From IMG/VR virus record IMGVR_UViG_3300033463_000020: a stretch of DNA of 64,000 bases; one strand, given 5' to 3'. The notes under the pieces were generated by a model, which saw only the letters and a list, made by a program, of their open reading frames with translations, made no database searches and was not told where the DNA came from. The position numbers and the translations under genes are program-made. Origin of the DNA: a virus. Lineage: Duplodnaviria > Caudoviricetes. Positions 4,714 through 25,773 of this stretch are shown here, in pieces (the stretch's first letter is position 1; the number at the start of each line of letters is the position of its first letter).

Positions 4714-5646
4714 ATGCCTGAAAAACAGAAAAACAGATACGCTAATTCGGTTCGTATCGTTGGTTATTTGAAGGAGAACAATCTTGAAACCGTTACAAAC
4801 ACTCGTGGAGACCAGGTCATTCGAGGGGCGCTAGTAATCGCTACGACTAAAACCAGCAGCTACAAGGTCCAGTTTTATGTAGCCGCAATGACATCAGCGA
4901 ACGAGCCCTCGCAGGACTATGAACGACTGTCGGCGCTGCTGCCCGCCAATACCACGACGGTTGCGTCTCTCTTGAAAGCAGACAGTAATACTGATTTTGA
5001 TAGCGCGATCGCCAATGCCACAAAGGTGTGGGTAATGGCGCGTTTGGACGAGTATGCGTCCCGCAGCGGTGAACGCGAGACTTCCATGATTACCATCAAG
5101 GGCTTCCGGGGCGGTATCGCCAGCGAAGATAAATTCAGACCCTGTGCGGAGTTTGAAGCCGATGTGTATATCGAAACGCTGGCCGAAGAGGTGAACGGTG
5201 CTAACGAAAAGACGGGCCGTCTGTCTCTGGGTTGCGTCGTTCCGAAGTACAAAGAGATCATGGATCGCATTGATTTCATCGCGGGAACCGAGGGCAACGC
5301 TGCTCAGTTTATTGCCAGCCACTGGAAGGTCGGCGACACAGTGCACATCGGTGGCGACCTGGTCAATCTTCAGGAGCGTGTATTGGTGGAATCGGAGACC
5401 CCGAGCGAGGGCTTCGGACGTCTCACGGAGCCGCAGTACGAAACGCGGTTTGTTCGGGAGCGTGTTATTACCACTGGCGGACCGTGCAAGTGTGACCCGA
5501 TCACTAAGGCGATGGTCAAGGAGGGGCTGGCCCAGCGAGAGCTGCTTATGCAGAAAAACGGTGCACGCGCCAAGCAGTCTCCAAATGCGAACGCTAACAC
5601 CAGCGCAGCTCCGGCAAAGGCCGACCTGAGTGAGATGGATTTCTGA
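4714..5646 (+). CDS. Single-stranded DNA-binding protein (double OB-fold type)
   Basis: N.V.IVG.LKE start, second OB-like half, acidic/aromatic C-terminus (SEMDF), position in the recombination module. Confidence 0.6.
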   Translation: MPEKQKNRYANSVRIVGYLKENNLETVTNTRGDQVIRGALVIATTKTSSYKVQFYVAAMTSANEPSQDYERLSALLPANTTTVASLLKADSNTDFDSAIANATKVWVMARLDEYASRSGERETSMITIKGFRGGIASEDKFRPCAEFEADVYIETLAEEVNGANEKTGRLSLGCVVPKYKEIMDRIDFIAGTEGNAAQFIASHWKVGDTVHIGGDLVNLQERVLVESETPSEGFGRLTEPQYETRFVRERVITTGGPCKCDPITKAMVKEGLAQRELLMQKNGARAKQSPNANANTSAAPAKADLSEMDF

Positions 5647-5656
5647 GGGGCATAAT

Positions 5657-6061
5657 ATGACCGCCGATAAAAACGAGAACACGCCGTCGCTGGTCGACTT
5701 TGATTAGTTGGCCTGCTAGTTGATGGCAGTGCCGGGATCTCCCAAAGAGCTAGTAGCTTCGCCGGAGTTTTCGGAGCGGTATATAGAGCTTACCAATGCT
5801 TTAGCTTCTTTACAGGAACTAAAGAAAAACGTGGACGGCATGATTAAGGACGTGCTTCGTGAATAGTACTATGAAAATGGTGAAAATAGCATTGTCACGC
5901 CAGAGTGTCGTTATACCTATGTGCCTGTTGGCACGCGGGAAACGTTCGACTCCAAGGCGCTAAAGATTGCCGATCCCGAAACATATTGTCGTTATGTAAA
6001 AGTTGCGCAGGTGAGCGATTCTATACGTATTACTAAAAATCGTACTGATGGCACCCAGTAA
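5657..6061 (+). CDS. Hypothetical protein hidden by 3 in-frame TAG
   Basis: ATG after GAGG; frame is open under TAG=Gln. C-terminal RETFDSKALK..DPETY..YVK resembles small proteins associated with phage exonuclease/recombinase genes. Confidence 0.7.
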
Positions 6062-6692
6062 CATGAAGTCCTGGGAGCGGCATGAACTACCCAACGGTGA
6101 GCTGGTCATGTTTAATGCAGACGAGCATGCGTATATCGTACGTGACTAGGTAGTGCCCAGCGTCACAACGCTATTATAGACGGTTTATGGCAATCCATAT
6201 ACCGGCGTGAATCCGGAAACTCTGGACCGCGCAGCGAGATATGGCACTGCGGTACATAGCGAGCTAGAATCGTTGGTAAGCTATCGACAGGAGTGGGGGG
6301 AGGCCCCCACTCCGGAGATGATGCATTTTTAGGAAGTATAGAATTATTTTACCTATATTGAACCTATTTATTAGATAGTGCCGCAGCTCTTAGAGCGCGT
6401 GGTGGTGTTATATGATGCTGCTTAGCGCCCGGTCTCGGCCGGGCGTTTTGATATGCTGTGCACAGTAGCGGGGAAACCCTGTTTGGCCGATTTTAAGACT
6501 ACGTCGGCGATCCATCGCCCCCAAGTTACTGCATAGCTAAACTTATATCGGCGTGCTGCCGAGCAGTCGGGTTATTTGACCCAGGTTGGTTCGGTGTCGC
6601 TGGGGGTGATACACTTGCATGGCGAAACCAGTCGCTTTTTCCCTATCCCTATTTTGGGCGAGAATTTTCTAGAGCGATTTATCCCCAGTTGA
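6048..6692 (+). CDS. PD-(D/E)XK exonuclease hidden by 7 in-frame TAG
   Basis: F...H.Y...VPSVTTLL, YGTAVHSELE, AGRFDML, LADFKTT and A(TAG=Q)LNLY motifs. Absent from the ORF track. Confidence 0.85.
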
Positions 6693-6717
6693 CGGGGGAC
6701 TTGCATCCCAATATAAT
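6689..6717 (+). promoter_or_regulatory. sigma70-type promoter with CCCAA extension
   Basis: TTGACG-17bp-TATAAT. Confidence 0.85.
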
Positions 6718-6754
6718 GTGGGTAAAGTCCATGAAGTAAAAGGAAGGGTAAAAC

Positions 6755-7615
6755 ATGAATTTTCCTCTGCTGACCTCTGAAGACATCGAGGTCAAAGTCA
6801 AGACCATTACCAAAACAGGCGCGCTCTTGCTGCTATATAAAACGGCGCGCGTAGACGCCAAAATTTTGGATGAAACCGTAGGCCCGCTGAACTGGTGCTG
6901 TGACTATGAAGAAATTAAAGGTAATCTATTTTGCAGGGTCGGAGTGCGTGAAAGCGCCGACCAGGATTTTGTGTACAAAAGCGATTGCGGCATTGAGTCG
7001 GGCCAGGATGATGGCAACGAGAAGAAAGCCGAGGCCAGTGATGCATTTAAACGCGCCTGCAGCCGCTGGGGCATCGGACGCGAGTTGTACGACAGCTCTC
7101 TGCAGATCTGGGCTGAGGTAGCGACAGTTGAGCGCAATAACAAATGGTATTTACAGGATCCGTTTGCGCGTTATGTCGTAACGTCAATCGAGTATAATGA
7201 GCAGACTCGTGTAATTACGGCGCTCGAAATTTGCAATGCCAAAAGTAATGTGTGCGTCTTTTCATGGCGGCGACCGTCAGAAGGCGCCCTGGGGCGCAAA
7301 ATGGTGAAGACCTGGGGCGGGAATAATGAGTCTACTGATTCTCCGGCCAATACTGAGACGACGCCGAAAGCAGCGCCCAAGACGGTAGCTCAAGCCGAAA
7401 CCACGGATCGGATCCCGTTGGCACAGCTGATCAGCGATATCGGCGGCATGGTTAAGACGATGATGGCTAAAGACGGTGGGGCGGGCGCTTACAAGGACAT
7501 CGTGGCACGCATTGCGGGCAGCGCGTCGTTCCGCTGCAACACTGCCACGGAAGAGCAGTATGATATCGTAAAGGGTATCTACGACGCTCTTGCTGAGGCA
7601 GGATATGGCAACTAA
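6755..7615 (+). CDS. Rad52/Sak-like single-strand annealing protein
   Basis: LLLYKTARVD..ILDETVG...W and KAEASDAFKRACSRWGIGRELY motifs. Confidence 0.85.
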   Translation: MNFPLLTSEDIEVKVKTITKTGALLLLYKTARVDAKILDETVGPLNWCCDYEEIKGNLFCRVGVRESADQDFVYKSDCGIESGQDDGNEKKAEASDAFKRACSRWGIGRELYDSSLQIWAEVATVERNNKWYLQDPFARYVVTSIEYNEQTRVITALEICNAKSNVCVFSWRRPSEGALGRKMVKTWGGNNESTDSPANTETTPKAAPKTVAQAETTDRIPLAQLISDIGGMVKTMMAKDGGAGAYKDIVARIAGSASFRCNTATEEQYDIVKGIYDALAEAGYGN

Positions 7616-8087
7616 AATTTGCCGCGGGTGTAATCAGCATATCGTTGGGATGAACTATGGATACGGTGGCGCTACTTATTGTGCCGCTTGTTTCCAGAAA
7701 CTCCAAGATCGTCTGGCCCACGACGAGGGGGATCGCAGGTTATTATATGACACGATACGTCGTATTTTCAATGTTACCGAGATTCCCGATGAAGTGGTAG
7801 CTGCGGTTAATCGTGAAGTGAAGGCCGGCCGCAAATTGACCGGCCTTACTGCCACCTTACGTTATTATTATGATCTTGAGGGACACGTACCGGGCGGCGT
7901 GTATAGTGCTATTCCGGTATTCCGTGAACAGTACGAGAACGCACGGGATTATGCCCGTAAAATGGCGCAAATTGCGGAGCGTAATCAAAACATAGACCTT
8001 GACGTCCCCCCGACGATAGTAACGGTCACCCCCGAAAGTTTGCGACCTATTCGGCAGCGTCCGACTATCAATATTGAAGATTTGTAA
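7605..8087 (+). CDS. Zn-finger protein upstream of helicase (possible loader)
   Basis: CxxC...CxxC N-terminus; overlaps the Sak stop and precedes DnaB. Confidence 0.55.
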   Translation: MATKICRGCNQHIVGMNYGYGGATYCAACFQKLQDRLAHDEGDRRLLYDTIRRIFNVTEIPDEVVAAVNREVKAGRKLTGLTATLRYYYDLEGHVPGGVYSAIPVFREQYENARDYARKMAQIAERNQNIDLDVPPTIVTVTPESLRPIRQRPTINIEDL

Positions 8088-8113
8088 ATTGACGGAGAGG
8101 AGGAAGTCCGTTT

Positions 8114-9724
8114 TTGGATAACATACAGTCCGTAGAACTACAGACAGGGGTAGCCTCGAATAAACTGGCTATCATGCATGTTTTGGCAGGATTAATTGAC
8201 GACCCTCTTCGTTTTGCTAATAACGCCTACTCCTTTAGCGAGGACGACTTTCCTGAGCGTTTTCATAAGATAGTGTTTGCAGCCATTCAGCATTTGGCGA
8301 TGAATGGAATGGAGCACATAGGGTATATTGATATTGATCAATTTCTTAAGCAGTATGCCGTACAATACAAGGTGTTCTGCGCCAATCGGGGCGTGGAGTA
8401 TATTCAAAACATCATGGCAATGTACGACCCAAAGAAATTTGACTACTATTATCATACACTTAAAAAATATAGTCTGATTAATGACTTAAATGCGAAGGGA
8501 ATCGACACCAAAGATATCTACAATCCCGATATTATTGACCCCATTGAGAGTGAAAAGATGTATCGGACATTCGATAGTCTCACGGTCAATGACATTCTGT
8601 TAACGGAAGAAACTAAAATTATTCTGGCCAAAGAAAAATTTGGTAGCAATAGTGACCGTGTCGAGAACAAGGCCGGTGATGGTCTGCGTGCCTTAAAAGA
8701 GCGCTTCAAAGAAACCCCGGATATGGGGTTGGGATTGTTATCGCCCAAGCTGACCACTATTTTACGCGGGCAGCGTCGAGGGTGTCTGTTTATTGAATCG
8801 GGCGGATCTGGCTTTGGTAAGTCACGTCGTGGCAATGGTGAGGCCTGTCATTTAGCTATCCCCGAATATTATGATACTCAAAAAAAGACCTGGGTGAACA
8901 CCGGGCTGCATGAGAAAGTTCTGATGATTTCCACCGAGCTGGAAGAGTTTGAGTGTCAGCAAATGTGGATGGCTTTCGTCGCGGGTGTTTCCGAGGCGCA
9001 TATCAAAGACGGACGTTACGCCCCGGGAGAGGAAGAGCGCGTTGATAAGGCCATAGATTTAATTGAACGTTCGGAATTATATTTCGTTAGTATTACGAAC
9101 TATGATACGGACGATATTGTCAATATTATCAAGAAATATAAGCAATTGCATGATGTGAACTATGTCTTTTTTGACTATTTGGGCGAGACATTAAAGATCA
9201 CATCATCCGCAACGCGTCAAACCCGGGTGCAGGGGCTGCGTACCGATCAGATCTTGCTTTTGTTATCATCTGCATTGAAAGACACGGCCAAAACACTGGG
9301 TATTTATATCTGGACTGCTTCACAGCTGTCGGGCGATTACAAAAATGCCAAGGATTTAGACGCTGCGTATCTACGATCGGCGAAATCAATCGCTGATAAA
9401 GTGGACGCTGGTTTAATCTTAATGCCCGTGCGCGAAGCCGATCAGCCCGTTATTGATACGTATTGTGCGCGTGGTTTTGAGTTGGCGCCGAATTTTGTTA
9501 TCACAGTCTATAAGGTACGTGCTGGCAGCTATCAAAATATTAAAGTGTACGTCTATTTTGACCGGGCTACGTGCCAAATGTTTGACTGTTTTGTGACCGA
9601 CCGCGATGGTGCGATCCTGCCGATAGAGGACACTAATGTTGACCTGGTGTTGGATGACACGCGGACCGAGGCTTTCTTAGAGGCTTACGATCTCAAGGCT
9701 GGCGATGAGGATTTTGATTTTTGA
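8114..9724 (+). CDS. dnaB: Replicative DnaB-like helicase
   Basis: Walker A SGGSGFGKS, ISTELE, VFFDYL, TASQL, LRSAKSIADKVD, KVRAG. Confidence 0.9.
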   Translation: MDNIQSVELQTGVASNKLAIMHVLAGLIDDPLRFANNAYSFSEDDFPERFHKIVFAAIQHLAMNGMEHIGYIDIDQFLKQYAVQYKVFCANRGVEYIQNIMAMYDPKKFDYYYHTLKKYSLINDLNAKGIDTKDIYNPDIIDPIESEKMYRTFDSLTVNDILLTEETKIILAKEKFGSNSDRVENKAGDGLRALKERFKETPDMGLGLLSPKLTTILRGQRRGCLFIESGGSGFGKSRRGNGEACHLAIPEYYDTQKKTWVNTGLHEKVLMISTELEEFECQQMWMAFVAGVSEAHIKDGRYAPGEEERVDKAIDLIERSELYFVSITNYDTDDIVNIIKKYKQLHDVNYVFFDYLGETLKITSSATRQTRVQGLRTDQILLLLSSALKDTAKTLGIYIWTASQLSGDYKNAKDLDAAYLRSAKSIADKVDAGLILMPVREADQPVIDTYCARGFELAPNFVITVYKVRAGSYQNIKVYVYFDRATCQMFDCFVTDRDGAILPIEDTNVDLVLDDTRTEAFLEAYDLKAGDEDFDF

Positions 9725-9735
9725 GGTGGTGAGCC

Positions 9736-10857
9736 ATGTTAGATAGCAATAAAGTCAAAAAGCGCTTGACCACCGAGAATGTCATTGAGCTATGCTGCAC
9801 GCTACAGGATGACCGGAACGTGTTATATGATGCGCAGGGGCATCCGATTTTCAATACGTGTCTTTGCCACGGGGGAGACAGCGATAAGTTATATTATTAT
9901 CCCGAAACGCAATTGTTCCACTGCTACACCTGCGGTGATAGCTATGATATATTTTCGTTGGTTCAGCGCGCCAAGGGATGCGAATTTCGCGATGCGTTTC
10001 GGTATATCGTTGATTTTTTTAAGCTGAGAGGATTTCGAGACGACAGTGATGAAGATCCTCCGCTGAGCGATGACTGGGATATTTTCCAGCGCATTAAGGA
10101 CTGCGAAACCAATGGGGTCGTGCGCGAAGAAGCGCCCCCGATGCCCGAAAATCTATTGGAATTTTTCTACCCGCTCGCCGCGCCTCAGGAGTGGCAGCGC
10201 GATGGCATCAGCCCACAGGTCATGCGTGCCTTCGGCATTCGGATAGATAGTGCCTTGCAGCATATCATTATCCCGCACCGTAACGTGCGAGGTGAGCTTA
10301 TTGGGATCCGGCGGCGCTCTTATGATCCGCTGGAAGTAGCCGGTGGTAAGAAGTATATGCCGGTAATGATCGAGGGCGATATATATCGTCATAGTCTAGG
10401 CAGCAATTTATTTGGGCTATATGAAAATCAGCGTGTTATTCATAACACGCAAAAAGTTTTAGTAGCCGAATCCGAGAAGTCGGTTTTGCAACTCGCTAGT
10501 ATGTACGGGCTCGATCAGTGCTGGGCAGTTGCGACATGTGGCTCGTCGTTTTCACAGACGCAGATGAGCCTGCTACTGGAGCTCGGAGTATCTGAAGTGG
10601 TTTTGGGATTTGACCATGAGTTTACTGGTGGCCGCGGCGCAGATGATACTGTGGCGTATGAGGCTAAGCTTTTGAAAGTGGTGGCCCCTCTATTACCATA
10701 CGTCAATGTTTCGGTAATCATGGACTATGATGGATTGACGAAGTATAAGGACTCGCCCACTGATTGTGGCCGCGAGATTTTTGAACAACTTTATCACCAG
10801 CGGATACGGTTGTATACTTATGATGAAAAAAGAAAGACGAGGAAAAGGAATGGCTGA
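9736..10857 (+). CDS. dnaG: DNA primase (CHC2 Zn finger + TOPRIM)
   Basis: CH...FHCYTC Zn finger; IIIPHRN..GELIGIRRR; VAESEKS; LGFDHE. Confidence 0.85.
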   Translation: MLDSNKVKKRLTTENVIELCCTLQDDRNVLYDAQGHPIFNTCLCHGGDSDKLYYYPETQLFHCYTCGDSYDIFSLVQRAKGCEFRDAFRYIVDFFKLRGFRDDSDEDPPLSDDWDIFQRIKDCETNGVVREEAPPMPENLLEFFYPLAAPQEWQRDGISPQVMRAFGIRIDSALQHIIIPHRNVRGELIGIRRRSYDPLEVAGGKKYMPVMIEGDIYRHSLGSNLFGLYENQRVIHNTQKVLVAESEKSVLQLASMYGLDQCWAVATCGSSFSQTQMSLLLELGVSEVVLGFDHEFTGGRGADDTVAYEAKLLKVVAPLLPYVNVSVIMDYDGLTKYKDSPTDCGREIFEQLYHQRIRLYTYDEKRKTRKRNG

Positions 10858-11833
10858 AAAATTTTCTTATTCCAAGCTGAATACTTTTGAAGCCTGTGGG
10901 TGGAAATATAAGCTATAGTATGTAGATGGACATTATATTTCTGCAGATTCGCTGGCTATTTAGCTCGGTCTGCTGGTGCACGGGATCGAGGAAGAGATCG
11001 CACGCACTATTCAAATGGGGGGCAAGCCGGACTACGACAAACTGAAAGATAAATTTCAAAACGCGGGGATGGGTGGTGCTGCAACACCGGATCATCGTAG
11101 TGCCCTACAGGGGATTAAAGTTCTGTAGGAAAAATTCAAAGAAGATTTCTTTGAGCCCGATGACCGGGGTGCTTCATATCACACTCGCACGGAAGATTAT
11201 TTAGCTTATGGCATTTATCGCCTGGAGCGTTATTTGGCCCAGCATCCAACTTTAGAGATCTCGGGCATTGAGCAGTTCTTCTCTATAAATTTCCAGGGGA
11301 ATGTTCTGAGTGGTTATATCGACCGTGTCTTCCATGACCGCGAAACCAATATGTATTATGTCGAAGATATCAAAACACGGGCCAAGCCCTTCCGCGATAC
11401 CGAGCTTAATACTCCGTTACAGTTTGTTATATACGTGTATGCCCTGGCCGAGAATCTGGGGTTGGATTACAGCCATTTCCAATGCGCTTATGATCTTCCC
11501 TTTTTGGATACGAAACAAGTTGCAGGATCCTCCGGCTTTATGTCGCGAGGTCTGAAGAAAATACGTGAAGCGTTTGGAGATATCAAAGATAAAAACTTTG
11601 TGCCGTCACCGTCGCCACTGTGCCGGTGGTGCCAATTTTCTCCAACCAACCCCGGACAGCCGGAGGCCGGTAAATTATTGTGTCCATATTATTCGTTATG
11701 GACTCAAGAAAATCGGATCCACACAGTGGCTCACAAGTGGGAGGGCATTGAGCGTCATCCGGCTATTATGGCGGATGAAGTGCGGGCCCAAACGGCGAGT
11801 GAATCCAAAGTCTTGTCTGAGTTCGACTTCTGA
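10850..11833 (+). CDS. PD-(D/E)XK nuclease, Cas4/AddB-like with 4 Cys; 3 in-frame TAG
   Basis: FSYSKLNTFEAC N-terminus joined through TAG to GYIDRV, EDIKT, LQFVIY, CRWC...C. Confidence 0.85.
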
Positions 11834-11845
11834 AAGGATTAAAGC

Positions 11846-12316
11846 ATGGGGAACGTAGTGCACGAAATTAGTCGTGTGACTTTGAATTTTGACGCCCTGG
11901 AGGAATGGCGGGATACTGCCGCTGATGATATTCCTATTTGTAGTTTACTAGGGCTATATCGCGCTGCCGGCATTGTGGAAATTATGTCAGAGTATGCGGC
12001 ACAACATTCCGGTATGCAGTTCTGTGCATTGGACAATTTGTCGTGTAATTTCTACACCTTGTAGCACATACGGCGTTTTGTGACCGACAATTGGCGTAAA
12101 TTTTCTTTGCGCCTAGAGGGGGATTGCAAGATCCGGTGGGATACGCATCGTTATGCGAAAGGTGTGGCGCACCGTCCATTCAATTTAAAGGCCAAGGTGC
12201 AGCACAGCCTCAATCTAGACTTTGCGAACTTTTGTCCGGCCATAGATGATGAGCTGCCCGATGATGTGATCGTATTTGCGGTCCCTGGGGCTCCGGAGAG
12301 CGACGATAAAACTTGA
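11846..12316 (+). CDS. Hypothetical protein (1 in-frame TAG)
   Basis: 11846-12064 and 12080-12316 share a frame and join at TAG 12062. Confidence 0.65.
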
Positions 12317-12341
12317 CGAATAAGTTGTACCCCAATATAAT
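12313..12341 (+). promoter_or_regulatory. sigma70-type promoter with CCCAA extension
   Basis: TTGACG-17bp-TATAAT upstream of dnaE. Confidence 0.85.
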
Positions 12342-15300: not shown

Positions 15301-16251
15301 CTTGAGGGGCAGCCGCGTATGCGCATTATGACGCGTTATCTGCAGCAACTTGCCGACGAGGACTACCCGTTAAAAGATAAGCTGACCCTGGTACAGATAC
15401 GTAAGGCAATTGATATGGGGTGGACCACCCCGGAATTTGCGGAGTCGATACGTATTTTAAAATTCAAGCAATACGTAGAGGCGCACTGCCAGGATACGGA
15501 AAATAAAAGGCTTCTTTTATCAGACGATAAATGCATTAAATTTTTCGAACAGTATATTATGAACCAGCTGAACCTGACTAAGGGAGAGTACAGCGTGCTG
15601 CCCGGGGGACGGTTGGCTGTAAAACTCACAGCGTTCCGAAAAGTGATTACCGCGTTGCTGGCGCCGGTGGTAGAGTATTTTAATACCGAGGCCGGGCGAC
15701 AGGCATATAAAGATTTGCTGCAGGGGGCCTTCCTAAAGGAAATGTGGGAGACCAAGTGTGCGGGATCGATTTCACGCTGGGAGATGGAAACATTAAACTT
15801 TTACTATAGCGGGCACGAATTGCGCAGTGTCGGTAAGGCCAAGTATGGCATCGGTAGCTTCTTTGCGCTGCCTGAGCGTGGTGATAATCCGCGCATGATT
15901 GCACTGGTTGGTACGGTAACCGACACGAACAATACCCGGCATACTATCAGTCTATTAACACCTGAAGAGGGTGTAGTTGACGTAAAGTTCTATGGCGGTA
16001 CTTATGCGCAGTACAACCAGCGGATCAGTATTATTGACGCCGCTACACAGAAAAAAACTGTTGTGGACGAAAGCTGGTTGAAGCGGGGTACGTTATTACT
16101 CATATATGGTATCCGAAAAGAGAACATGTTCCACGCGCGCACTGACCGTAGCGGTCCACTGCCGCGAACCATCGGTCTGATCGAACAGATACATTCTGAT
16201 GGCACATTAGGGGTCCGGTATGCACGCCGGCGGAAAGTCGAGAGTAAATGA
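12373..16251 (+). CDS. dnaE: DNA polymerase III alpha subunit (family C)
   Basis: PHP domain (LHNHS, FTDHE, TTDSHY), GRGSA, catalytic PDVDED, C-terminal OB fold. Start placed at GTG 12373, downstream of the promoter. Confidence 0.95.
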   Translation: MSNFVSLHNHSWASNLRFLDCINRPKEMVDKALSLGFSGLAFTDHEALSAAVEILKARDAIRKDHPDFKIIFGNEIYLIDQTEVGQTRDFYHFILLAKDLTGWDQLRALSSRAWERGYVDRGQRRVPTTYQDLEEIVKANPGHLLASTACLGGRLAKAILAHDVQGANEFVRWCIDVFGSENFALELQPANSDEQIQVNHTLLRFSQYYNIPYIITTDSHYLNKEDFVVHSAFLNSKQTTDRETDKFYRFTYMMSLEEMREILQASGLTNDEIERGFQNTVELTAAMEDYDFRHGTIVPRIKIPDFQLSKILYAYDGYPAIRKQYDSADDQDRYLMYQIEQGLQHKHVTITTVILERIDAELDILQYISEQIGQNLSSYLNLTVNIVDIAWQVSLVGTGRGSACGFYINYLIGITQADPLQYNLAHWRFLNKERAELPDVDEDFQPEKTDDIVRLLREAYGEDNVLNCATFKTESLKSAILSCGRGLGYNNDEMQALAALVPEHRGHFYTLDECLVGDTEKGFDPVPGFEGKFVAYPGLLEAVRKIEGLPTNSSIHASALYVFNNGFLAQNSMMRAPNGTKITAFNMHDSDDLGALKMDVLRTDAQSKIAKCMELLLADQQMEWKGSLRATYDYYLHPDVLQYDNPQMWADMADGKIANLFQFETQVGAVCIKKARPTDVMELAEINSIMRLQADEGEQPIDRYVRFRNNPVAWDLEMIEEGLTTHEMDILKKYLSGSHGVSGSQEVLMRILMDPEVCGFTLGESNAARKAIAKKIATKLIQLKADFYEKGGQRARKEFLDYVWTYCIEPQLGYSFSINHTLPYSLIALQEANLATRWDPLYWKCACLCVNSGSYVGAMGDEDDEADDSEGVDESADGKRHVAPNYGKISRAITDAQRAGVNIELPDINRAQADFVPDIENQSILYSLRAVTVVGDNLLAAIIAGRPYQSMQDFVTRVQPTRAQMIGLIKAGCFDALEGQPRMRIMTRYLQQLADEDYPLKDKLTLVQIRKAIDMGWTTPEFAESIRILKFKQYVEAHCQDTENKRLLLSDDKCIKFFEQYIMNQLNLTKGEYSVLPGGRLAVKLTAFRKVITALLAPVVEYFNTEAGRQAYKDLLQGAFLKEMWETKCAGSISRWEMETLNFYYSGHELRSVGKAKYGIGSFFALPERGDNPRMIALVGTVTDTNNTRHTISLLTPEEGVVDVKFYGGTYAQYNQRISIIDAATQKKTVVDESWLKRGTLLLIYGIRKENMFHARTDRSGPLPRTIGLIEQIHSDGTLGVRYARRRKVESK

Positions 16252-18641
16252 AAAACAACGTTAGTGGCTTAGATTCTTTGATTGACCAGCCGGTGGTCGC
16301 CAAGGTAACGCTGCATAATTATCGTTTTCCCAAAGATCGTGCGCATAGCTCGGGTGAGTTTGCGATTGTCATTTTAGATGTCTTAGAGGTACAGCGGGGC
16401 ACCATTGCTGAAGAATGCTATCTAGCAGATCGGCGTATTGTTGTGTCGGGGCGGATACCCCGGCTTGAGGACGATATGGAATATATCTTCACGGGTCGTT
16501 TACGCGTTGATCCCAAGTGGGGGCCTCAATACACTTGTGACGAGATACATGCAAACTATAATATGAACGATCCCGCCGAGCAGCGAACGTTTCTCGGGTA
16601 TTTCTTAACCGAGCGTCAAATCAATTTGCTATACAAGACCTGCGCCGATCCTATTAACTTGATTCGCCAGCATAACCTGAGCGAGCTCATAAAAGTTAAG
16701 GGTATCGGACCGACCACAGCAGAGCGCATCTGCACTCGGTTTGCGGACAATATTCAGAATAGCCGAGCTTATGTGGAATTGGCGAATTTGGGACTAACCA
16801 AACGCGCGATTGACACAATTGTGCAGCAGATCGGCTCGGCAGACATTGCCATTGACATGATCAAGGCAAATCCCTATACATTAATTCGTTTAGTGCGGGG
16901 ATACGGCTGGGAACGCGCAGATCGTCTCGCGCTAGCTCAAGGTTTTGGTAGAGGGTGCAAAGAACGGTGCCTGGCGTACGCCGAGTATAAGTTAAACACG
17001 CTTGCCATGGACGAAGGCAACTCGCGGTTGCCCATAGACGAACTTTTAGACGAGCTAGCTCAAGTCTGCGCGCCCACAGATCGCGCTCAAATCGCCGAGT
17101 GGATTAAGAGCGTGACAGTAGGAGAGCAGGATTTCGAACAGAGATATCAGGAGTACCAGCAGACGCAAAAGGATGCAGACCCGCCGCTGCTCTTCTACTC
17201 AAAGACAGCGCGCTGCATTGGCTTGTACAGTCTGCGCATGGTAGAACGACGGATTACGGGCGAACTGGTGCGTTTAAAGAGCGCACCGCACGCTTGGAAT
17301 TTTGATCACAAACAATGCGAACAAATCATTGGCCAGGTGGAGGCCGAACAGGGATATCAGTATACACACGAGCAGAGACGGGCCATTTGGAATATTTTAG
17401 ATTCTAACGTCAGTATTTTGACAGGTAGCTCCGGATGCGGTAAGTCAAGCACTTTGAAGCCGCTGATCCGTATTTTCCATCAGGCAGGAATCTCGGTAGC
17501 CCAGTGTGCATTGTCTGGACGTGCGTCGAGTTTACTCACGGAGTATACGGGGCTAGAAGGGAAAACCATCCACCGACTCTTGGGATACGACCCAGAACGC
17601 GAGCAGTTCATCCACAGTGCCCGGAATCCTTTGGAGGCTGACGTGATTATCTTGGATGAGACTTCCATGGTTGGCGAAGAATTGTTTTTATCATTGATCA
17701 GTAGTATCAAAGATGGAGGCAAGCTTTTGTTGCTGGGCGATACAAAACAGTTGCCCCCGATTTCCGTGGGGAATGTTTTGGGCGACTGCATTAGGTCGGG
17801 CTACGTACCGACCAATACGCTAACTATTGTGTAGAGACAGGCGCTTAAAAGCGGTATTGTTTCCCAGGCGATCCGTGTGTGCGAAGGGAAGTCGATTGTG
17901 AAAACCGACTTCTCCGGCAGTGAGATTCGCGGCGAACTTAACGATTTTAAGTTAATTGCGCGTGACGATGCCGCCCTAGTCCACGCACAGGCGGTAGAGG
18001 AGTTCAAACGCCTGTGGAATAAAGGCATTTCTGCCGACGATATACAGATTATTGTCCCCGTGCGTTCGCGTGGGATTAACAGTTGCCGAGTGTTTAATAG
18101 CGAAATTCAGGCCTTGGTTAATGGCGCCCCCTCCTCCAAAGCGGTTACGGTTGACGTTTTTGACAATGGCTTGAAATTCGAAGTTACATATAAACCCGGT
18201 GATCGGATCTTGGTACTGAAAAATAACTACCATGCCCGTACATTGAATGGCACCGAAACAGCGATTTTCAATGGCAATATGGGGCACATTGTAGATTTGG
18301 ATCCCGATAATATGATTATCCAGTTACAGGATACGTCAAACATTATTATTCCACGTGAAAGCTGGGATAATATTGGCTTAGCGTATGCTGTCACCTGTCA
18401 TAAGTGCCAGGGGAGCCAGGCCCCGTACGTAATTGTGAGCCTAGACTACTCAGGTTATTCATTATTAATGCGTGAGTGGTTATATACCGCGCTGACTCGT
18501 GCGCAAAAATTTTGTGCTTTGGTGGGACAGCCGAAGGCTATTAACCTAGCCACGCGAGTCAGCAACGTAAAGGTTAAGAACACCTGGCTAAAAGATGAAC
18601 TCCACGAGTGCTACCAACGAGAAATAGGAGTTCTTGTTTAA
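16248..18641 (+). CDS. recD2: RecD2-like SF1B helicase (1 in-frame TAG at 17832)
   Basis: HhH KGIGPTTA, GSSGCGKS, LDETSM, GD.KQLP, V(Q)RQA..SGI, AVTCHKCQGSQ, LYTALTRA. Confidence 0.92.
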
Positions 18642-18657: not shown

Positions 18658-19227
18658 ATGGCTATTTGGGTAACGAGTGATTGGCACTTCAATCACGGAA
18701 ATATTCTTCGCTTTTGTCGCTCATAGTTTGCGAATATCGAAGAACACAACGCTCTGATTATTGAGCGTTATAATGCGGTTGTAGGGCCAGACGATTTAGT
18801 TTATGTGTTGGGTGACGTTGGGTTCACCCCCGTGGGTGGCATCGCCGGCTGCGTTGAACAATTGAAGGGGCGCAAAGTCCTGTTAATTGGCAACCACGAT
18901 AAGCTACAAGATAGCATGTATCGTAAAATGGGCTTTATCAGTGTCGTACGTCATCCAATTTATTATACAACTAATATTATTTTAAGTCATGTTCCAATTA
19001 TAGAATGCTTAAACAATCCGTGGGCAATTAATGTCCACGGACATTTACATAAGAGCTATGTAAATTTACCCAACTATTTCAATGCAAACGTGGAGTTGCG
19101 CGATTTCGCTCCGGTCAATATGGACGAAATTGTAGCAATGGCGGACGGCATGTGTCGTCCATCTCGGTATGAACAATATACGCAGGAGTGGTACGCCGCC
19201 TGGGAGACCCGTTTACCGAATAGTTGA
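18658..19227 (+). CDS. Calcineurin-like metallophosphoesterase (1 in-frame TAG)
   Basis: SDWHFNH, LGDV, GNHD, HGHLH motifs. Confidence 0.88.
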
Positions 19228-19252
19228 TTTTGTTATGGCACCCCAATATAAT
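19224..19252 (+). promoter_or_regulatory. sigma70-type promoter with CCCAA extension
   Basis: TTGATT-17bp-TATAAT. Confidence 0.75.
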
Positions 19253-19290: not shown

Positions 19291-19572
19291 ATGACGATTA
19301 ACGGTATTAAGCAAATTTTTCACAATGTGGCGACACAGAAAGGTTATCAACTCGAAGAGCGCCCCTCGCTTTCCACCAATTCTTATTATTTCAAGTTGCT
19401 TGGAGCATCTAGTTCAATTCTGTTTCGTGTTTCGGATCATGCTACACGAGACAATGTAATTACTTTGCGTATTGATAAGAAATTAAATGTGGATCGTGTG
19501 CGCGGATTTATTCTAAATCGTTGTGCGGATTTAAGTGTGCGCCAGCGGGACAGATATTTTGCGCAACTGTGA
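19291..19572 (+). CDS. Hypothetical protein
   Basis: RBS GGAGG; S.Y...RVSDH motif common in small phage proteins. Confidence 0.65.
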   Translation: MTINGIKQIFHNVATQKGYQLEERPSLSTNSYYFKLLGASSSILFRVSDHATRDNVITLRIDKKLNVDRVRGFILNRCADLSVRQRDRYFAQL

Positions 19573-19581
19573 GGGAAAATT

Positions 19582-20781
19582 ATGACCAGTATATATTTGG
19601 ACGGGGCTGCTAATACCCCACTCTCAAGGGCTGCATTCCGTGCTATGCGGCCCTTTTTACGGCACGGGCTAGGGAACACTATGTCTGTGCACCATTTTGG
19701 CGTCGCCATGTTTACAGCGTTGGAGTAGGCGCGCGATACTATTGCCACGCTAACGCATGCGCGCCCCGAGGAGATTTTCTTTACTTCTGGAGCCACCGAA
19801 GGCAACAATTAGGCGATTATGTCTGCTGCCCAGCAATGGCGGGCCACGCACGAAACGGGAGGCCATATTATTTGTTCGGCGTTGGAGCACGATTCGGTAT
19901 TAAAGTGTTGTGTTAGAGTCGCCGAGATAATGCATTTTGATGTTTCTTTTGTACTGCCCAAGCAGGAAAATGGCTATCGTATAGACATGGCGGATATCAC
20001 CCCTTTGCTTCGACCGGATACTTTTCTGATCTGTGTTATGGAAGTAAACAACGAGCTGGGGACACGGAATCATGTGGCTCAAATTGCTTAGGAAGCCACT
20101 CTGCGCGGTATTGCCACACTAGTAGATTGTACCCAAGGGATTAGTACCGGGGGATCAAGTGTGGCTATCGCCAGTCGTATACCCTGTGCCACTTATTTAA
20201 CTTGTTCTGCGCATAAATTTTATGGCCCCACAGGCGTAGGGCTGTTAATTGCTCGGCGTGCGTTGGAACCGCTGATTGTCGGTGGAGGGCAAGAATAGGG
20301 GGCACGCGGCGGCACCCACAATTTGGCGGCTATCGTAGGCATGGCCGCAGCGCTAAAAGAATTGCACCGGACAGATTACTCGGGTCATTACCAGGCGTTA
20401 ACTAATCACCTGTGTGTGCGTTTAGCAACCAGCCTACCAGATGCCAGATTTAATGTGTGGCCCGACGCGCCCGGCATTGTAAGCCTTAACTGTGGCGCTA
20501 TGATCACCAGCGGACATTTAGCCAGCATGCTGGATAGTTATGGTATCGCAGTGAGTGCGGGTTCGGCATGTGATGCTGATCACGATGAAACCGCGGGGCA
20601 ATTTCACGCCTCTCACGTGTTAACTGCTCTTGGTTTGAGCGAAACGGAAATTCGTAACACAATACGCGTATCCTTTATTCGTACGACAACCATGAGGGAT
20701 ATTGATCGATTAGTGTTTGCGTTACGAGATTTATATGATTTATATTATTCTTCTGCAAAGGAGCCAAATGTTACAGTATGA
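19582..20781 (+). CDS. iscS: Cysteine desulfurase IscS/NifS (4 in-frame TAG)
   Basis: IYLD.AA, FTSGATEGNN, LEHDSV, VNNELGT, PLP-binding SAHKFYGP, GGGQE.G.RGGT, catalytic SAGSAC. TAG at 19726, 19810, 20089 and 20296. Confidence 0.92.
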
Positions 20782-21284
20782 TCAGGTTTGAAAAGGTAAG
20801 CTTCGAAGAGTTTTCACGGGCGTTAATTGAAAGTTGCGGTATTTTTCTCTCCACGGATGAACGGCGTGCATATTACGATGCAATTAAATTGCCTACGCGC
20901 AGCACGCCCGGAAGTGCGGGTTACGATATCGCGACTCCCATTCCAATTAATATACCCACAGATGGGCGTTATATTTTGGTACCGACGGGGATACGGTTCG
21001 TAACGGATCGTTCCGATATTGTCTTGTTATGTGCGCCGCGCAGCGGTTTGGGTTTTGGCAGAGGTGTCCGTTTGCGTAACACCCTGGGTGTGATTGATAG
21101 CGATTTTCAATTTTCAACTACGACGGGGCATATCATGCTAAAGCTGGGAGCTGACGAACCCTGTGAACTACCGGCAGGTCGAGCGTGTGTACAGGGGATC
21201 TTTGTTCCCTTTCTCACGGTAGATGACGAGACCACAGAGGGCATGGTACAGCGGACCGGCGGACTCGGTAGTACGGGGCGCTAA
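20778..21284 (+). CDS. dut: Trimeric dUTPase
   Basis: SAGYD, PRSGLG, GVIDSDF, RTGGLGSTG motifs. Confidence 0.92.
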   Translation: MIRFEKVSFEEFSRALIESCGIFLSTDERRAYYDAIKLPTRSTPGSAGYDIATPIPINIPTDGRYILVPTGIRFVTDRSDIVLLCAPRSGLGFGRGVRLRNTLGVIDSDFQFSTTTGHIMLKLGADEPCELPAGRACVQGIFVPFLTVDDETTEGMVQRTGGLGSTGR

Positions 21285-21285
21285 A

Positions 21286-21669
21286 ATGCGTATGACCAAT
21301 CTGTACAAAGAAACTGAATAGGTACTGGCTCGGCATAAATTAAAATGGAGCCATATTCGATTTGTGTGCGATAGTACAGGGGTGATCCCTTTGGCGGATT
21401 TTACTCGGCGCGCAGCCGTCATCGATTATGACGCCGACTATGGTGTGGTGTATATCGATCCCTCGCTGAAAATTGTTGGGGGCACCTGGTGGTTAGAGCG
21501 GGCGAACTATGACGGCCTGGAAGGCTGGGTTTTTCGGCGTAAGCCGGAGCAACCGGGAGTCTATGCTACTCCCGGACGTTTAATGGCAGAGCACCCGTTT
21601 GACGACAAAGGGTGGCAAGACGAGATTGAATTGTATGATCCACAAGAGCCACTGCGGTGGCATGTGTGA
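21286..21669 (+). CDS. Hypothetical phage protein (1 in-frame TAG)
   Basis: ATG 21286 joins ORF 21364-21669; YD.DYG...WWLER.NYDG.EGW motif. Confidence 0.65.
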
Positions 21670-21677
21670 GGCAATGG

Positions 21678-21887
21678 ATGGAAGATACTATAATTATTAA
21701 AAATCCCGATACGACCCTGGTAAAGGAGATCCAAGAAGCAATTGCGGCCAATGATGGTTACTGTGTGTGTGCCATTGAGCGCACGCCAGAGACCAAATGC
21801 ATGTGCAAGTTTTTTCGCGAGCTCCCGGAGGGACCGTGTCATTGCGGCCTATATATAAAAGTGAAGAAGGACGGTACGAATTCGTGA
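21678..21887 (+). CDS. Ferredoxin:thioredoxin reductase catalytic-subunit-like Fe-S protein
   Basis: GYCVC...KCMC..F....GPCHCGLY pattern (CxC, CxC, CHC). Confidence 0.75.
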   Translation: MEDTIIIKNPDTTLVKEIQEAIAANDGYCVCAIERTPETKCMCKFFRELPEGPCHCGLYIKVKKDGTNS

Positions 21888-22444
21888 ACATTTATTTGGC
21901 AGGGCCTATTTTTACCTATGGGGATTTACTGCGTAATACGGAGTGGGCAGCGAAAGTGCGTGCTGCGTTTCCTGGCGTAAACCTGTATTCGCCGGTGGAG
22001 AACACGGAGATCAACGGGGTCGAGGGCAAAAAGAAGTTTGCCGGATCTCAGGCGATCGTTAACGGGGACAATGCGCGACTGGACCACACAGACGTTTTGC
22101 TGGCATGTATTGACGGAGACGTTATCCCCGCGGGGACGGCAGCCGAAATTGGAAAATTCCACGAAAAAATTATGCGTGGTGATCGCAAGTGGATCGTAGG
22201 CATTTGCACTGACAATCGTCAGTGTCACTTGACTCATAGCGCAGCAAAAGATGCGGGCGGTGCATCGGCACCCGGAGAGCAGCAATATTCTTACCATAAC
22301 TTATATGTGACCGGGCTAATTAAACAGGCCGGCATTTTAGTAGACAATATTGATGACGCGATTGCGTTCATCCGTGACAATTGTGTCTGTAGAAAGGAGA
22401 CGGGCGACGAAATTGAAGGCGAAGTCTTCAATGATCGTTCATAA
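21884..22444 (+). CDS. Nucleoside 2'-deoxyribosyltransferase family protein
   Basis: IYLAGPIF, YSP.EN, D...L..TD...A.IDG, GTAAEIG, NLYV.G. Confidence 0.85.
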   Translation: MNIYLAGPIFTYGDLLRNTEWAAKVRAAFPGVNLYSPVENTEINGVEGKKKFAGSQAIVNGDNARLDHTDVLLACIDGDVIPAGTAAEIGKFHEKIMRGDRKWIVGICTDNRQCHLTHSAAKDAGGASAPGEQQYSYHNLYVTGLIKQAGILVDNIDDAIAFIRDNCVCRKETGDEIEGEVFNDRS

Positions 22445-22448
22445 GACC

Positions 22449-23753
22449 ATGAGTAATTTAATTTATGGGGTAACTGAGAGGCCCCGCAAGTTATCTGAGT
22501 GGATCGGATATATCGCGCAGTACTTTTTCTGTGTTTTACCGGCAACTATGCTGATCTCACGCATCTGCGGGACCAGTATTGCAGCCGGACTGGTGTCGGC
22601 AGGTCTGGGTACACTAACCTTCCTTGCCATCACAAAAATGCGCTGTGCGATGGTAACCAGTAATTCAGGCGCAACCGTTAGCGCGATCGTTGGTACAATG
22701 GCCTTGAGCAAAACCGTAGAAGCGGGTATGACAGGGGTCGTTGTGGGCGGCTCCATTATGATGCTCGTTTATATGATCGCGGCTATTCTGGTCAGAAAAT
22801 TCGGCACCAATTGGCTTAACAAGTTAATGCCTCCCGTAGTGTCGGGATCTACCATTATTGTAATTGGTGCGTCGCTTACTCTCTTTATTCCCGCATATGC
22901 GCAGGTCAACGGTCAGTTCTCTTATTGGGGCGTGGCTGTCTGCCTGTGTACCATGGCGGTCGCAGCCTTGGTCGGTCATTATGCTAAAGGAATTTGGAAA
23001 ACACTGCCCTTCTTGGCAGCGATCATTGTCGGTGACGTCCTGGCCATTGTTATTACGCTGTGCGGACTGGCTCCGCTGGTTGATTTTGCTGCGATGGTTC
23101 CCCATTCGGTCCTGTCGCTTCCCGAGCTCGCTTTCCTCCATCTAGATTTTGTAAACTTTGAGTGGTCGACGCTGCCCCAGATCTTACTGATGTTTGGGTT
23201 GGTGGCGCTATCGGCAATGACAGAGCACGTGGCTGATGTCACCACCGCCGGCAAAATTGCGGAACAAAATTATCTGCAGGATCCCGGGTTGCATCGAACG
23301 TTACTTGGTGACGGAGTGAGTTCGTTTGTGGGCTCCCTGACGGGCACACAGATGACCACTACTTATAGTGAGTACACGGGCACAATGGCCGTAAGTCGTG
23401 TGGCAAGTGCCTGGGTGACCCTGGGAACGGCTGTGGCATTAATTGTGTTTGCTTTTATCACACCGTTTACAAATTTCCTGGCGTCATTGCCCAACTGTAT
23501 TATTGCTGGAATTAGTATTTTAGCATACGGTGCTATTGCTAATACCGGGGTGCGAACATTGATCGATGCAAAGGTGAATTTTACACAGAATCGTAACTTG
23601 TTTATTTTTGCAGCCATGTTCTCCGCGGGTATTAGTGGCTTGGCCATTCCTATTACTGAAAATTTTGCAATTAGCGGCATTGTATTTGCAATGATCGTCG
23701 GTATTGTCTTAAATCTCATTTTACGAGAGCGGAAGGGTGACAGTAAAGAATGA
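22449..23753 (+). CDS. NCS2-family nucleobase permease (UraA/PyrP-like)
   Basis: Many TM segments; PPVVSG, EHVAD, DPGLHRTLLGDG, TTYSE..G...VSRVAS. Confidence 0.9.
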   Translation: MSNLIYGVTERPRKLSEWIGYIAQYFFCVLPATMLISRICGTSIAAGLVSAGLGTLTFLAITKMRCAMVTSNSGATVSAIVGTMALSKTVEAGMTGVVVGGSIMMLVYMIAAILVRKFGTNWLNKLMPPVVSGSTIIVIGASLTLFIPAYAQVNGQFSYWGVAVCLCTMAVAALVGHYAKGIWKTLPFLAAIIVGDVLAIVITLCGLAPLVDFAAMVPHSVLSLPELAFLHLDFVNFEWSTLPQILLMFGLVALSAMTEHVADVTTAGKIAEQNYLQDPGLHRTLLGDGVSSFVGSLTGTQMTTTYSEYTGTMAVSRVASAWVTLGTAVALIVFAFITPFTNFLASLPNCIIAGISILAYGAIANTGVRTLIDAKVNFTQNRNLFIFAAMFSAGISGLAIPITENFAISGIVFAMIVGIVLNLILRERKGDSKE

Positions 23754-24037
23754 ATGAGCCCAACACGCGAGAAGTGATTGGCGGCGCAACGCGGGCGGTT
23801 CGAGAATATTATGTCAATATGTATCCTCGGACCACCGCTATTTTACCGGATATTGACGTAACACTGATTTCATGCACCCAAATCCAGGGAGCCTGGTCAT
23901 TATTATTTGAGGTTTCTATGCCGGTAAGTGCTTTGTGCCGAGTTGAGGCTACATATATTCGAGAAGCATATTGTTATGAGATCACGGAGTTTTTGAAAAC
24001 TAATTCCGCATCTATAGTTCCGCATATTCCTAGTTGA
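23750..24037 (+). CDS. Hypothetical protein
   Basis: ATGA overlap with the permease stop. Confidence 0.55.
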   Translation: MNEPNTREVIGGATRAVREYYVNMYPRTTAILPDIDVTLISCTQIQGAWSLLFEVSMPVSALCRVEATYIREAYCYEITEFLKTNSASIVPHIPS

Positions 24038-24062
24038 TAATTGTAGCACACCCCAATATAGT
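24034..24062 (+). promoter_or_regulatory. sigma70-type promoter with CCCAA extension (variant)
   Basis: TTGATA-17bp-TATAGT. Confidence 0.65.
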
Positions 24063-24095
24063 AAGTATAATGTTTGAGGAAGGAACAAGATTTTT

Positions 24096-24563
24096 ATGAA
24101 AAATCCAGCTGTGAACCAGCAGTACTTTTCTGCTGAGAGAGTAAAATCTGGCGCCATGTCTGCTTTTATTCAAACCCTATTAACATTCGCATATGATACG
24201 GATGACAAGGATACTGCTACATATAACGATGTGCATGTGTATCCCGCGGATTGCGGCGCATTTATGGTTGAATGGGCACAGGAGCCCTGGAGCCGTGAAT
24301 ACGGTGGTAGTTTCCAGTACGTTGACGAGGATCAGGTTGTCGTACTAGAACGGGCATTTCCTGATGGGACATATGAGTATTTTGCGTCAGAAGAAGAGTT
24401 CACTACAGCTCTCAATGATTGGCTCGTGGAGCATCCGGAGTATCATCGCAATCAATGGGGCATGTGGACCACGAGCAGTGACGCATCTGATGAGGATACT
24501 GAGGATGATGAGGACGACGAACCCGATGAGGAGTCTTCAGAGGAGCAGCACATAGACGAATGA
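24096..24563 (+). CDS. Acidic hypothetical protein
   Basis: RBS present; very D/E-rich C-terminal tail. Confidence 0.65.
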   Translation: MKNPAVNQQYFSAERVKSGAMSAFIQTLLTFAYDTDDKDTATYNDVHVYPADCGAFMVEWAQEPWSREYGGSFQYVDEDQVVVLERAFPDGTYEYFASEEEFTTALNDWLVEHPEYHRNQWGMWTTSSDASDEDTEDDEDDEPDEESSEEQHIDE

Positions 24564-25114
24564 GTCGTAAGAGATTTAGTGACTGGGACGATTACGATGA
24601 GTTCGAGGACACAGGCGGATACACTAAACTGTCCAAAAGCGATAAGCGTCGTCAGCATGAATTAGAAAATGTACGGCGTCCTAAGCGCGGTCATCGGCAC
24701 AGTCCCACTTTAGATTGGGAGATCCTCGATGATCCTATTCCGGAACCGATAGAGTCGCCTGTAACGCCAGTAGAGTCGCCCGCAGAACCGCCCCCGTCTG
24801 TTACGCCTCCCGCCGTAGTGTTTGACCCCGATGCTACCACATTTGGTACGCCTAAGGGATTAACTGACATGAATACCCGGGTGGTGAAGGGGAATGAAAT
24901 CAACTATGATCGCGTGGTAGACATGTGCAAAGTCGAAAACGACCACAACGGTCGTTTGACCTATGGAATTAAGTTCACATTCTTTGGGACTACCGCGCAA
25001 CGAGAGTTATCACGTATTGCTTGGTTCAACATTAACCAAGCTGAGCGTGACCGTTTATATACTCAAGAACGCAAATTTTGGCAGTCTCTTCAGGGAGATA
25101 GAAAGGATAGTTAA
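24560..25114 (+). CDS. Hypothetical protein
   Basis: Overlaps both neighbours (ATGA and TAATG); Pro-rich linker. Confidence 0.6.
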   Translation: MSRKRFSDWDDYDEFEDTGGYTKLSKSDKRRQHELENVRRPKRGHRHSPTLDWEILDDPIPEPIESPVTPVESPAEPPPSVTPPAVVFDPDATTFGTPKGLTDMNTRVVKGNEINYDRVVDMCKVENDHNGRLTYGIKFTFFGTTAQRELSRIAWFNINQAERDRLYTQERKFWQSLQGDRKDS

Positions 25115-25773
25115 TGAAGAACCGTATGTGTACTGGTACCGAGGTAGCTGTAGTGGGGCTTTCCGACGTATTGTCTGAGCTGCCCCTGGCCGAAATGGCG
25201 GCCCTGCCGGCGCCGAGCACGCTAATGTATTACCTTGATCGCAACGATCGGATGTTGTGGCTCGAAGGCGACGTTGACGAGGACGTTTTGAGCCTCGAAA
25301 AGCAGATCTTATATTTTAATCGGTGCGATGCCGGGATCCCCCCCGCAGAACGCAAGCCTATCAAACTGCTGATCTATAGCTATGGCGGAGATGGGGTGGC
25401 TAGCTTCAGCTTAATCGACGTGATTTTGAATAGCCAGACGCCCATTTACACCATTAATATGGGTGTGGCTATGAGTGCGGCGTTGGTCATTCTGTTGGCC
25501 GGGCACAAGCGCTATTGTTTGCCTCGGTCTGTTGCATTGATCCACTCTGGTTCGGGTGGTACCAATGGAACCTATGAGCAGAACGAGGCTCAGATGAAAG
25601 ACTACCAGCACTTCGTAGGTGTAATGCGCGATTTCATTCTAGAACGCACCTCTATTACCGCCAAGACCTTCAATAAACAGAAGGGCAAGGAATGGTATCT
25701 TTATGCCGCAGATCAGGTATCACACCACGTCGTAGACGCTGTGATTAATAGTCTAGACGAAATTAACCCCTGA
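25114..25773 (+). CDS. clpP: ClpP-like serine protease subunit
   Basis: PIKLLIYSYGG, catalytic AMSAA, LIHS, WYL.A. Confidence 0.88.
   Translation: MKNRMCTGTEVAVVGLSDVLSELPLAEMAALPAPSTLMYYLDRNDRMLWLEGDVDEDVLSLEKQILYFNRCDAGIPPAERKPIKLLIYSYGGDGVASFSLIDVILNSQTPIYTINMGVAMSAALVILLAGHKRYCLPRSVALIHSGSGGTNGTYEQNEAQMKDYQHFVGVMRDFILERTSITAKTFNKQKGKEWYLYAADQVSHHVVDAVINSLDEINP

Follow-up and report, generated by a model that had tools for sequence, protein, structure and literature searches.

The stretch analysed here, which we call the window, comprises 64,000 nucleotides of the Caudoviricetes record IMGVR_UViG_3300033463_000020 and is part of a ~150-kb cattle-gut phage. Its replication module (positions 4714-25773) interleaves genes for the replication machinery with genes for nucleases, and the codon TAG occurs in frame in some of these genes and in none of the others. 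The phage decodes TAG as glutamine via its own tRNA(CTA). Open reading frame (ORF) coverage of the + strand rises from 50 kb to 68 kb once TAG is read as sense, and when the TAG positions of the window are aligned to relatives that lack in-frame stops in the module, the residue most often found opposite them is glutamine (26 of 113). In a likelihood comparison against empirical substitution profiles, glutamine outscored the next residue by 51 log-likelihood units and glutamate by 79, which rules out glutamate for the window. In the ortholog alignment, one TAG of the exonuclease gene coincides with the invariant Q of the QxxxY motif.

Functional labels for the genes were taken from Pfam and PHROGs matches (Table 1). 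The gene starting at 6048 matches the PHROG "exonuclease" (E 9e-18) and scores 18.9 bits against Pfam PDDEXK_1, under the cut-off of 22; its motifs GRFD, DFKT and QLNLY are kept in the ortholog alignment, so the catalytic D, the (D/E)xK and the QxxxY of a lambda Exo/RecE/YqaJ-like PD-(D/E)XK exonuclease are all present. The Cas4-like protein starting at 10850 reaches 76 bits with the same model (cut-off 22), and its orthologs conserve one N-terminal cysteine and a C-terminal CxxC...C, a putative four-cysteine cluster. The product of the gene at 4714 has no Pfam match, and its assignment as a bacterial-type single-stranded DNA-binding protein (SSB) holds by fold: the predicted structure (pLDDT 85) is most similar to two-OB SSBs from Deinococcus and Thermus (E 1e-8), and the acidic C-terminal tail ends in ...SEMDF. 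We set the DnaE start at GTG 12373 because conserved PHP-domain histidines precede the ATG of the database gene call. Two TAGs at 25099 and 25108 fall upstream of the ClpP start codon, outside the gene.

Table 1. Genes, promoter-like sites and RNA features of the module and its surroundings, with two genes of a TGA-recoded relative.
Feature	Position	Strand	In-frame recoded stops	Remarks
Promoter-like site TTGACC-17-TATAAT with CCAATATAAT box	4301-4329	+		Precedes DUF3310 gene
DUF3310 gene	4378-4629	+	0 TAG	
Promoter-like site	4633-4661	+		Heads unit 1; conserved in relatives
Two-OB-fold SSB	4714-5646	+	0 TAG	Acidic C-terminal tail
RecE C-terminal-like protein	5657-6061	+	3 TAG	
PD-(D/E)XK exonuclease	6048-6692	+	7 TAG in 214 codons	One at the QxxxY glutamine
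Promoter-like site	6689-6717	+		Heads unit 2; -35 box holds exonuclease stop codon
Rad52/Erf-type single-strand annealing protein	6755-7615	+	0 TAG	
Zinc-ribbon protein	7605-8087	+	0 TAG	No assigned function
DnaB helicase	8174-9724	+	0 TAG	
DnaG-type primase	9736-10857	+	0 TAG	
Cas4/RecB-like PD-(D/E)XK nuclease	10850-11833	+	3 TAG	Codons 23, 38 and 93 of 327; Cys cluster (putative)
unk156	11846-12316	+	1 TAG	156 codons
Promoter-like site	12313-12341	+		Heads unit 3
DnaE-type polymerase (YorL-like)	12373-16251	+	0 TAG in 1292 codons	GTG start
RecD2 helicase	16248-18641	+	1 TAG	Codon 529
Calcineurin-like phosphoesterase	18658-19227	+	1 TAG	ATG 18658
Promoter-like site	19224-19252	+		Heads unit 4
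unk93	19291-19572	+	0 TAG	
IscS-like cysteine desulfurase	19582-20781	+	4 TAG	
dUTPase	20778-21284	+	0 TAG	
unk127	21286-21669	+	1 TAG	Conserved, 127 codons
Nucleoside deoxyribosyltransferase (NDT) and xanthine/uracil permease	21797-23753	+	0 TAG	
Three small unknown genes	within 21797-25773		0 TAG each	
Promoter-like site	24034-24062	+		Heads unit 5; one mismatch in -10 box
ClpP-like protease	25114-25773	+	0 TAG	From ATG 25114
Promoter-like site, same class	25780-25808	+		Precedes tRNA cluster
Suppressor tRNA	26139-26213	+		Anticodon CTA
Rfam drum RNA (RF02958) match	28171-28289	+		Within tRNA cluster
Promoter-like site, same class	61930	+		
NUMOD3 (homing-endonuclease-type) gene, 131-kb TGA relative	L220:5600-6463		8 TGA in 287 codons	
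DUF2726 gene, 131-kb TGA relative	L214:65-598		3 TGA	

TAG is spread unevenly over the window and over the module itself. Restricting the counts to the window, we found 86 TAG in 11,423 codons of late or structural genes (28% of their glutamine-type codons), compared with 20 in 6,759 codons of the module genes that had been listed in a sequence-only reading of this DNA, or 21 in 6,931 when unk127 and the DUF3310 gene are included; the replication module is depleted and the late genes are enriched, a pattern repeated in three relatives. Homogeneity within the module is rejected (length-proportional multinomial, P about 5e-6). At one extreme, DnaE uses TAG for none of its 63 glutamine-type codons (P about 1e-9 at the late-gene fraction). 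At the other, the exonuclease has a TAG density 4.4 times the late-gene rate (P 0.0014) and above that of every late gene in the window, TAG making up 58% of its glutamine-type codons. TAG use in the nuclease genes equals or exceeds the late-gene rate. The per-gene counts of the sequence-only reading were all reproduced, as was its list of TAG-bearing genes, to which we add the overlooked unk156 and unk127.

That TAG is placed by local base composition or glutamine content we regard as very improbable. Off-frame TAG density is slightly higher in TAG-bearing than in TAG-free genes (10.7 and 7.9 per kb, means of per-gene values), as such an account would have it, but GC content is equal in the two classes (about 0.48-0.49), which rules out GC or AT content as the cause; the abundance of glutamine-type codons in DnaE and the multinomial test also stand against it, as does the recurrence of the nuclease/replisome split in TGA-recoded relatives of 29-32% GC. 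CAG is the main glutamine codon of TAG-free genes (171 CAG to 72 CAA in the module) and is scarce in TAG-bearing and late genes, as expected if TAG partly took over from CAG.

We then compared the module with syntenic loci, retrieved from viral and metagenome contigs using alignments of DnaE homologs and of DnaB; the DnaE protein as a single query returned no relatives from viral contigs. In-frame stops were counted inside tblastn alignments to the window proteins in five lineages, three recoding TAG (the window, L008/L057 and L011-L017) and two recoding TGA (the L005 and L048 contigs). ARAGORN on whole contigs found a tRNA(CTA) or tRNA(TCA) in relatives, where DNA similarity had not found the suppressor. 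SSB, annealing protein, DnaB, primase and DnaE have zero recoded stops in all five lineages. Recoded stops elsewhere are distributed as follows: in L008/L057, exonuclease 7; in L011-L017, exonuclease 2-3, Cas4-like 4 and RecD2 0-1; in L005, Cas4-like 4, zinc-ribbon protein 3 and permease 1; and in L048, one each in the Cas4-like, zinc-ribbon and phosphoesterase genes. In a gene-level permutation over the five lineages, the 8 hits in nucleases compare with an expectation of 2.3-3.0 (P 1e-4 to 1e-3), and the 0 hits in the core replisome (here DnaB, primase, DnaE and annealing protein) with one of 4.0-6.6 (P 1.5e-5 to 6e-3). The outcome holds with L057 dropped, and the split noticed in one phage thus recurs across related phages.

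Three of the seven exonuclease TAG positions are common to the window and L008 and the remaining sites differ, and the recoded sites of the Cas4-like gene differ among all four lineages that have them; in these alignments, recoded positions are mostly independent between lineages. Among orthologs of module genes in a 133-kb TAG relative, the exonuclease (3) and the Cas4-like gene (4) alone bear TAG. TGA accounts for 4 of 8 and 1 of 5 tryptophan codons of the Cas4-like gene in the two TGA relatives, near the genome-wide 48% and 37%, and for 0 of 14 and 0 of 15 in DnaE. The NUMOD3 and DUF2726 genes of the 131-kb TGA relative (Table 1) adjoin a TGA-free DnaE and RecD2. IscS has no recoded stops in any relative, compared with 4 TAG in the window. 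In the DnaE tree the window groups with L008/L057, the two TGA lineages fall into a separate clade, and L011, L071 and L009 have no resolved placement. L009, a 150-kb contig in which no suppressor tRNA was found, apparently uses the standard code. One phage family (DnaE 52-75% identical) therefore holds TAG-recoded, TGA-recoded and apparently standard-code members, with GC contents from 29% to 49%. The DnaE of one relative (P0083) is labelled by NCBI as belonging to a Methanobrevibacter metagenome-assembled genome, which is probably a binning artefact because the sigma-70-type promoters described below argue for a bacterial host.

A scan for sigma-70-like sites gave seven 11/12 matches on the + strand, where chance would yield 0.5 per strand. 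An extended -10 box is shared by five of them and by a 10/12 site at 19224, and these sites define a promoter class with the consensus TTGACn-N13-CCAATATAAT. The exact decamer CCAATATAAT occurs in seven copies, all on the + strand (4320, 4652, 6708, 12332, 19243, 25799 and 61949), and a one-mismatch copy lies at 24053. These sites delimit predicted transcription units: SSB, RecE C-terminal-like protein and exonuclease (unit 1); annealing protein, zinc-ribbon protein, DnaB, primase, Cas4-like nuclease and unk156 (unit 2); DnaE, RecD2 and phosphoesterase (unit 3); unk93, IscS, dUTPase, unk127, NDT, permease and unk95 (unit 4); unk155, unk184 and ClpP (unit 5); and the tRNA cluster with the suppressor (unit 6). 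Five of the -35 hexamers contain the TGA stop of the gene before them. The junction promoters are also found in relatives, standard-code ones included, with lineage-specific bases before TATAAT. Within units, the Cas4-like gene begins inside the last 8 bases of the primase gene, and the RecE C-terminal-like and exonuclease genes overlap by 14 bases. With start and stop codons overlapping and promoter-like sites only at unit heads, the earlier placement of spared and TAG-bearing genes in the same operons stands for these predicted units, whose genes we infer to be co-transcribed.

The same observations bear on an account in which the nucleases are ordinary late genes transcribed mainly from unrecognised late promoters and their TAGs follow the known late bias. 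The scan took in sigma-70-like sites only and the phage has its own RNA polymerases, which leaves such promoters some scope; but the 8- and 14-base overlaps allow them no intergenic room, and the units abut so closely that the upstream stop lies inside the next -35 box. We consider this account improbable.

The site preceding the tRNA cluster belongs to the same class, and a strong site lies upstream of the suppressor tRNA in all three recoded relatives that we examined. The suppressor and the replisome genes are thus probably transcribed together. Every unit opens with a TAG-free gene, and units 1-3 have their TAG-bearing genes at distal positions. Within the window this ordering is weakly significant (first-gene test P 0.05, rank test P 0.17) and confounded with function.

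We favour, with a probability of roughly 0.6, a reading in which end-processing nucleases are translationally delayed and attenuated relative to the replisome on shared transcripts. The module would consist of five or six back-to-back units, each under a sigma-70-like promoter. The first gene of each unit, the core replisome (SSB, annealing protein, DnaB, primase and DnaE) and most nucleotide-metabolism genes would be translatable in an unmodified host, and the RecE C-terminal-like, exonuclease and Cas4-like genes and a few others would halt at an early TAG until the suppressor tRNA is charged, with every additional TAG lowering the yield of nuclease. Because each nuclease gene has a TAG ahead of its catalytic motifs, the full-length proteins would need the suppressor and, as long as TAG is a terminator in the host, would lag behind the replisome and be attenuated. 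The DNA-cutting enzymes can thus probably not be completed until the phage suppressor tRNA works. Possible selective reasons would be shielding of the single incoming genome or postponement of recombination-dependent replication, and the nucleases would be expected to appear after the replisome; the nuclease timing and toxicity invoked in the sequence-only reading are conjecture.

Several observations weigh against the favoured reading. The suppressor shares the early promoter class, and the delay could therefore be minutes or less. The Cas4-like gene is without TAG in the nearest lineage, L008/L057, and the RecE C-terminal-like gene is recoded only in the window; in the TGA lineages neither the latter nor the exonuclease has any tryptophan codon, making their zero TGA uninformative. 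In L057, no promoter lies between the 7-TAG exonuclease and the annealing protein, DnaB and primase genes, where an early stop in translation might, through polarity, cost the downstream genes their transcription. Conservation is somewhat lower in TAG-bearing than in TAG-free genes (mean identity to L001 44.6% and 50.8%). We rejected conservation as the cause, as this is a weak trend only: the divergence of SSB, the zinc-ribbon protein and unk156 is as rapid as that of the nucleases, but these three genes have 0-1 TAG. Finally, TAG in the window is also borne by genes that do not encode nucleases (IscS with 4, RecD2, unk156, unk127 and phosphoesterase), and relatives have recoded stops in the zinc-ribbon protein, NrdD/NrdG and permease genes. 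TAG is accordingly not specific to DNA-degrading enzymes, although nucleases are hit more often than expected across the five lineages.

These points lend weight to an alternative of neutral tolerance, in which purifying selection purges recoded stops only from genes needed before the suppressor, the others drift to the late-gene rate and the apparent lock is a by-product. Consistent with it, nuclease genes of two relatives are near the late-gene rate and not far above it, recoding of IscS, the zinc-ribbon protein, NrdD/NrdG, the permease and a distant-clade primase is lineage-specific, and the Cas4-like and RecE C-terminal-like genes are unrecoded in some lineages. Against it, the exonuclease density exceeds that of every late gene in the window, nuclease hits recur beyond the expectation from gene number or length, and many dispensable-looking genes (the small unknown genes, dUTPase, NDT and ClpP) are TAG-free in all lineages. 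On this balance we judge neutral tolerance unlikely. The pattern may be selected or may be a side effect of purifying selection confined to genes that are needed at once: selection is favoured by the exceptional TAG density of the exonuclease and by the repeated independent gains, and tolerance by the late-like nuclease rates of relatives and the many recoded non-nucleases.

A stronger form of the favoured reading would be a selected, convergent lock in which unrelated nuclease families (PD-(D/E)XK exonuclease, Cas4-like, RecJ-like and homing endonucleases) gain TAG or TGA independently and suppressor-dependent genes come to lie at unit ends before a re-initiating promoter, sparing downstream genes from polar loss. 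We advance this version only tentatively. Its component that TAG genes are placed last in their units as a safeguard against polarity is suggestive at best and was set aside, being contradicted by L057, where no promoter follows the exonuclease, and by the zinc-ribbon gene, which is recoded in TGA lineages and sits upstream of DnaB.

In a distant TAG-recoded clade (L101, L045, L027, L023 and L036; DnaE identity 35-37%), DnaE (0-2 TAG) and DnaB (0-1) are again spared, and a RecJ-like exonuclease carries 4-14 TAG. The primase, however, has 2-8 TAG, a further point against the favoured reading; NrdD has 2-8, and NrdG is also TAG-bearing. The small contig L071 has one TAG in the C-terminal part of DnaE. 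Sparing of the core replisome, which is complete in the five lineages, thus gives way in the distant clade and in L071. In the genomes compared here, the pattern that nucleases are loaded and DnaE and DnaB spared appears robust; "core replisome spared" and "nucleases only" do not appear robust as general rules. The gene-level timer proposed at the outset is partly supported, as to shared units, a recurrent split and the exclusion of composition, but not as a nuclease-specific device with general sparing of the core.

The arrangement has parallels in known systems. In Streptomyces, bldA control rests on a rare UUA codon and a developmentally expressed tRNA-Leu; here too a subset of genes on ordinary transcripts would await one tRNA species, although the codon is a stop reassigned by a virus-encoded suppressor and not a rare sense codon of a cell. 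Lambda Red and RecET modules are timed by transcription, from a delayed-early operon. They likewise pair a PD-(D/E)XK exonuclease with a single-strand annealing protein near replication genes, but in the window the annealing protein is TAG-free and only its nuclease partner would be suppressor-dependent.

The closest precedent is the work of Borges et al. (bioRxiv 10.1101/2021.08.26.457843) on recoded gut phages, in which replication genes keep the standard code and late or structural genes are recoded, and in which TAG-, TGA- and standard-code members are closely related in the cattle "Agate" clade. These authors proposed selective enrichment or depletion of recoded stops in particular gene families, testing lysis, tail and integrase families, and described a group I intron endonuclease that lies within an early gene and is preferentially recoded, so made late. 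The claim that the window reveals a timer beyond the described late/lysis bias is weakened by these results. Like the code-switch phages of that study, the present phage combines an encoded suppressor tRNA with standard-compatible replication genes and recoded structural genes. Unlike the cases described there, recoding in the early region affects RecE/lambda-Exo-like and Cas4/RecB-like nucleases that belong to the phage itself, and the split is mapped onto single transcription units defined by promoter class; recombination-machinery nucleases are mentioned neither by Borges et al. nor in the phAss-1 paper (PMC10607447).

We conclude that the module is a well-supported further case of a published principle, with a modest refinement. 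What is added is the promoter-unit map, the comparison of TAG with TGA recoding within one family and, as a counter-example, the TAG-rich primase of the distant clade. The code-switch model is refined from an early versus a late block to single genes in shared early units, and recombination or end-processing nucleases emerge as a class that would repeatedly be suppressor-dependent whether TAG or TGA is recoded. Were the pattern a product of selection, the genetic code would itself serve to place replication ahead of recombination within one transcript. For annotation, applying one code per block will break precisely these nuclease genes.

We additionally noted several features of individual products. 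Conserved acidic-aromatic tails end the SSB (5620-5646, ...SEMDF), the Cas4-like protein and its orthologs (11810-11833, ...(D/E)FDF) and the zinc-ribbon protein (8070-8087, ...IEDL), and may be shared docking peptides. More speculatively, IscS might be the sulfur source for an Fe-S cluster in the Cas4-like nuclease, whose production would likewise depend on reading TAG. No Rfam family matched the structured stretch that lies 5' of the suppressor tRNA; the drum RNA match scores 46 bits against a gathering score of 43. DnaE is a single gene in the window and is split at residue 803/806 into two ORFs in several relatives, adjacent and in different frames in L011 and L071 and 6-7 kb apart in L009 and L043 (L043/L093). 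Other DnaE homologs carry intein and homing-endonuclease domains, and the phage DnaE is possibly naturally split or trans-spliced.

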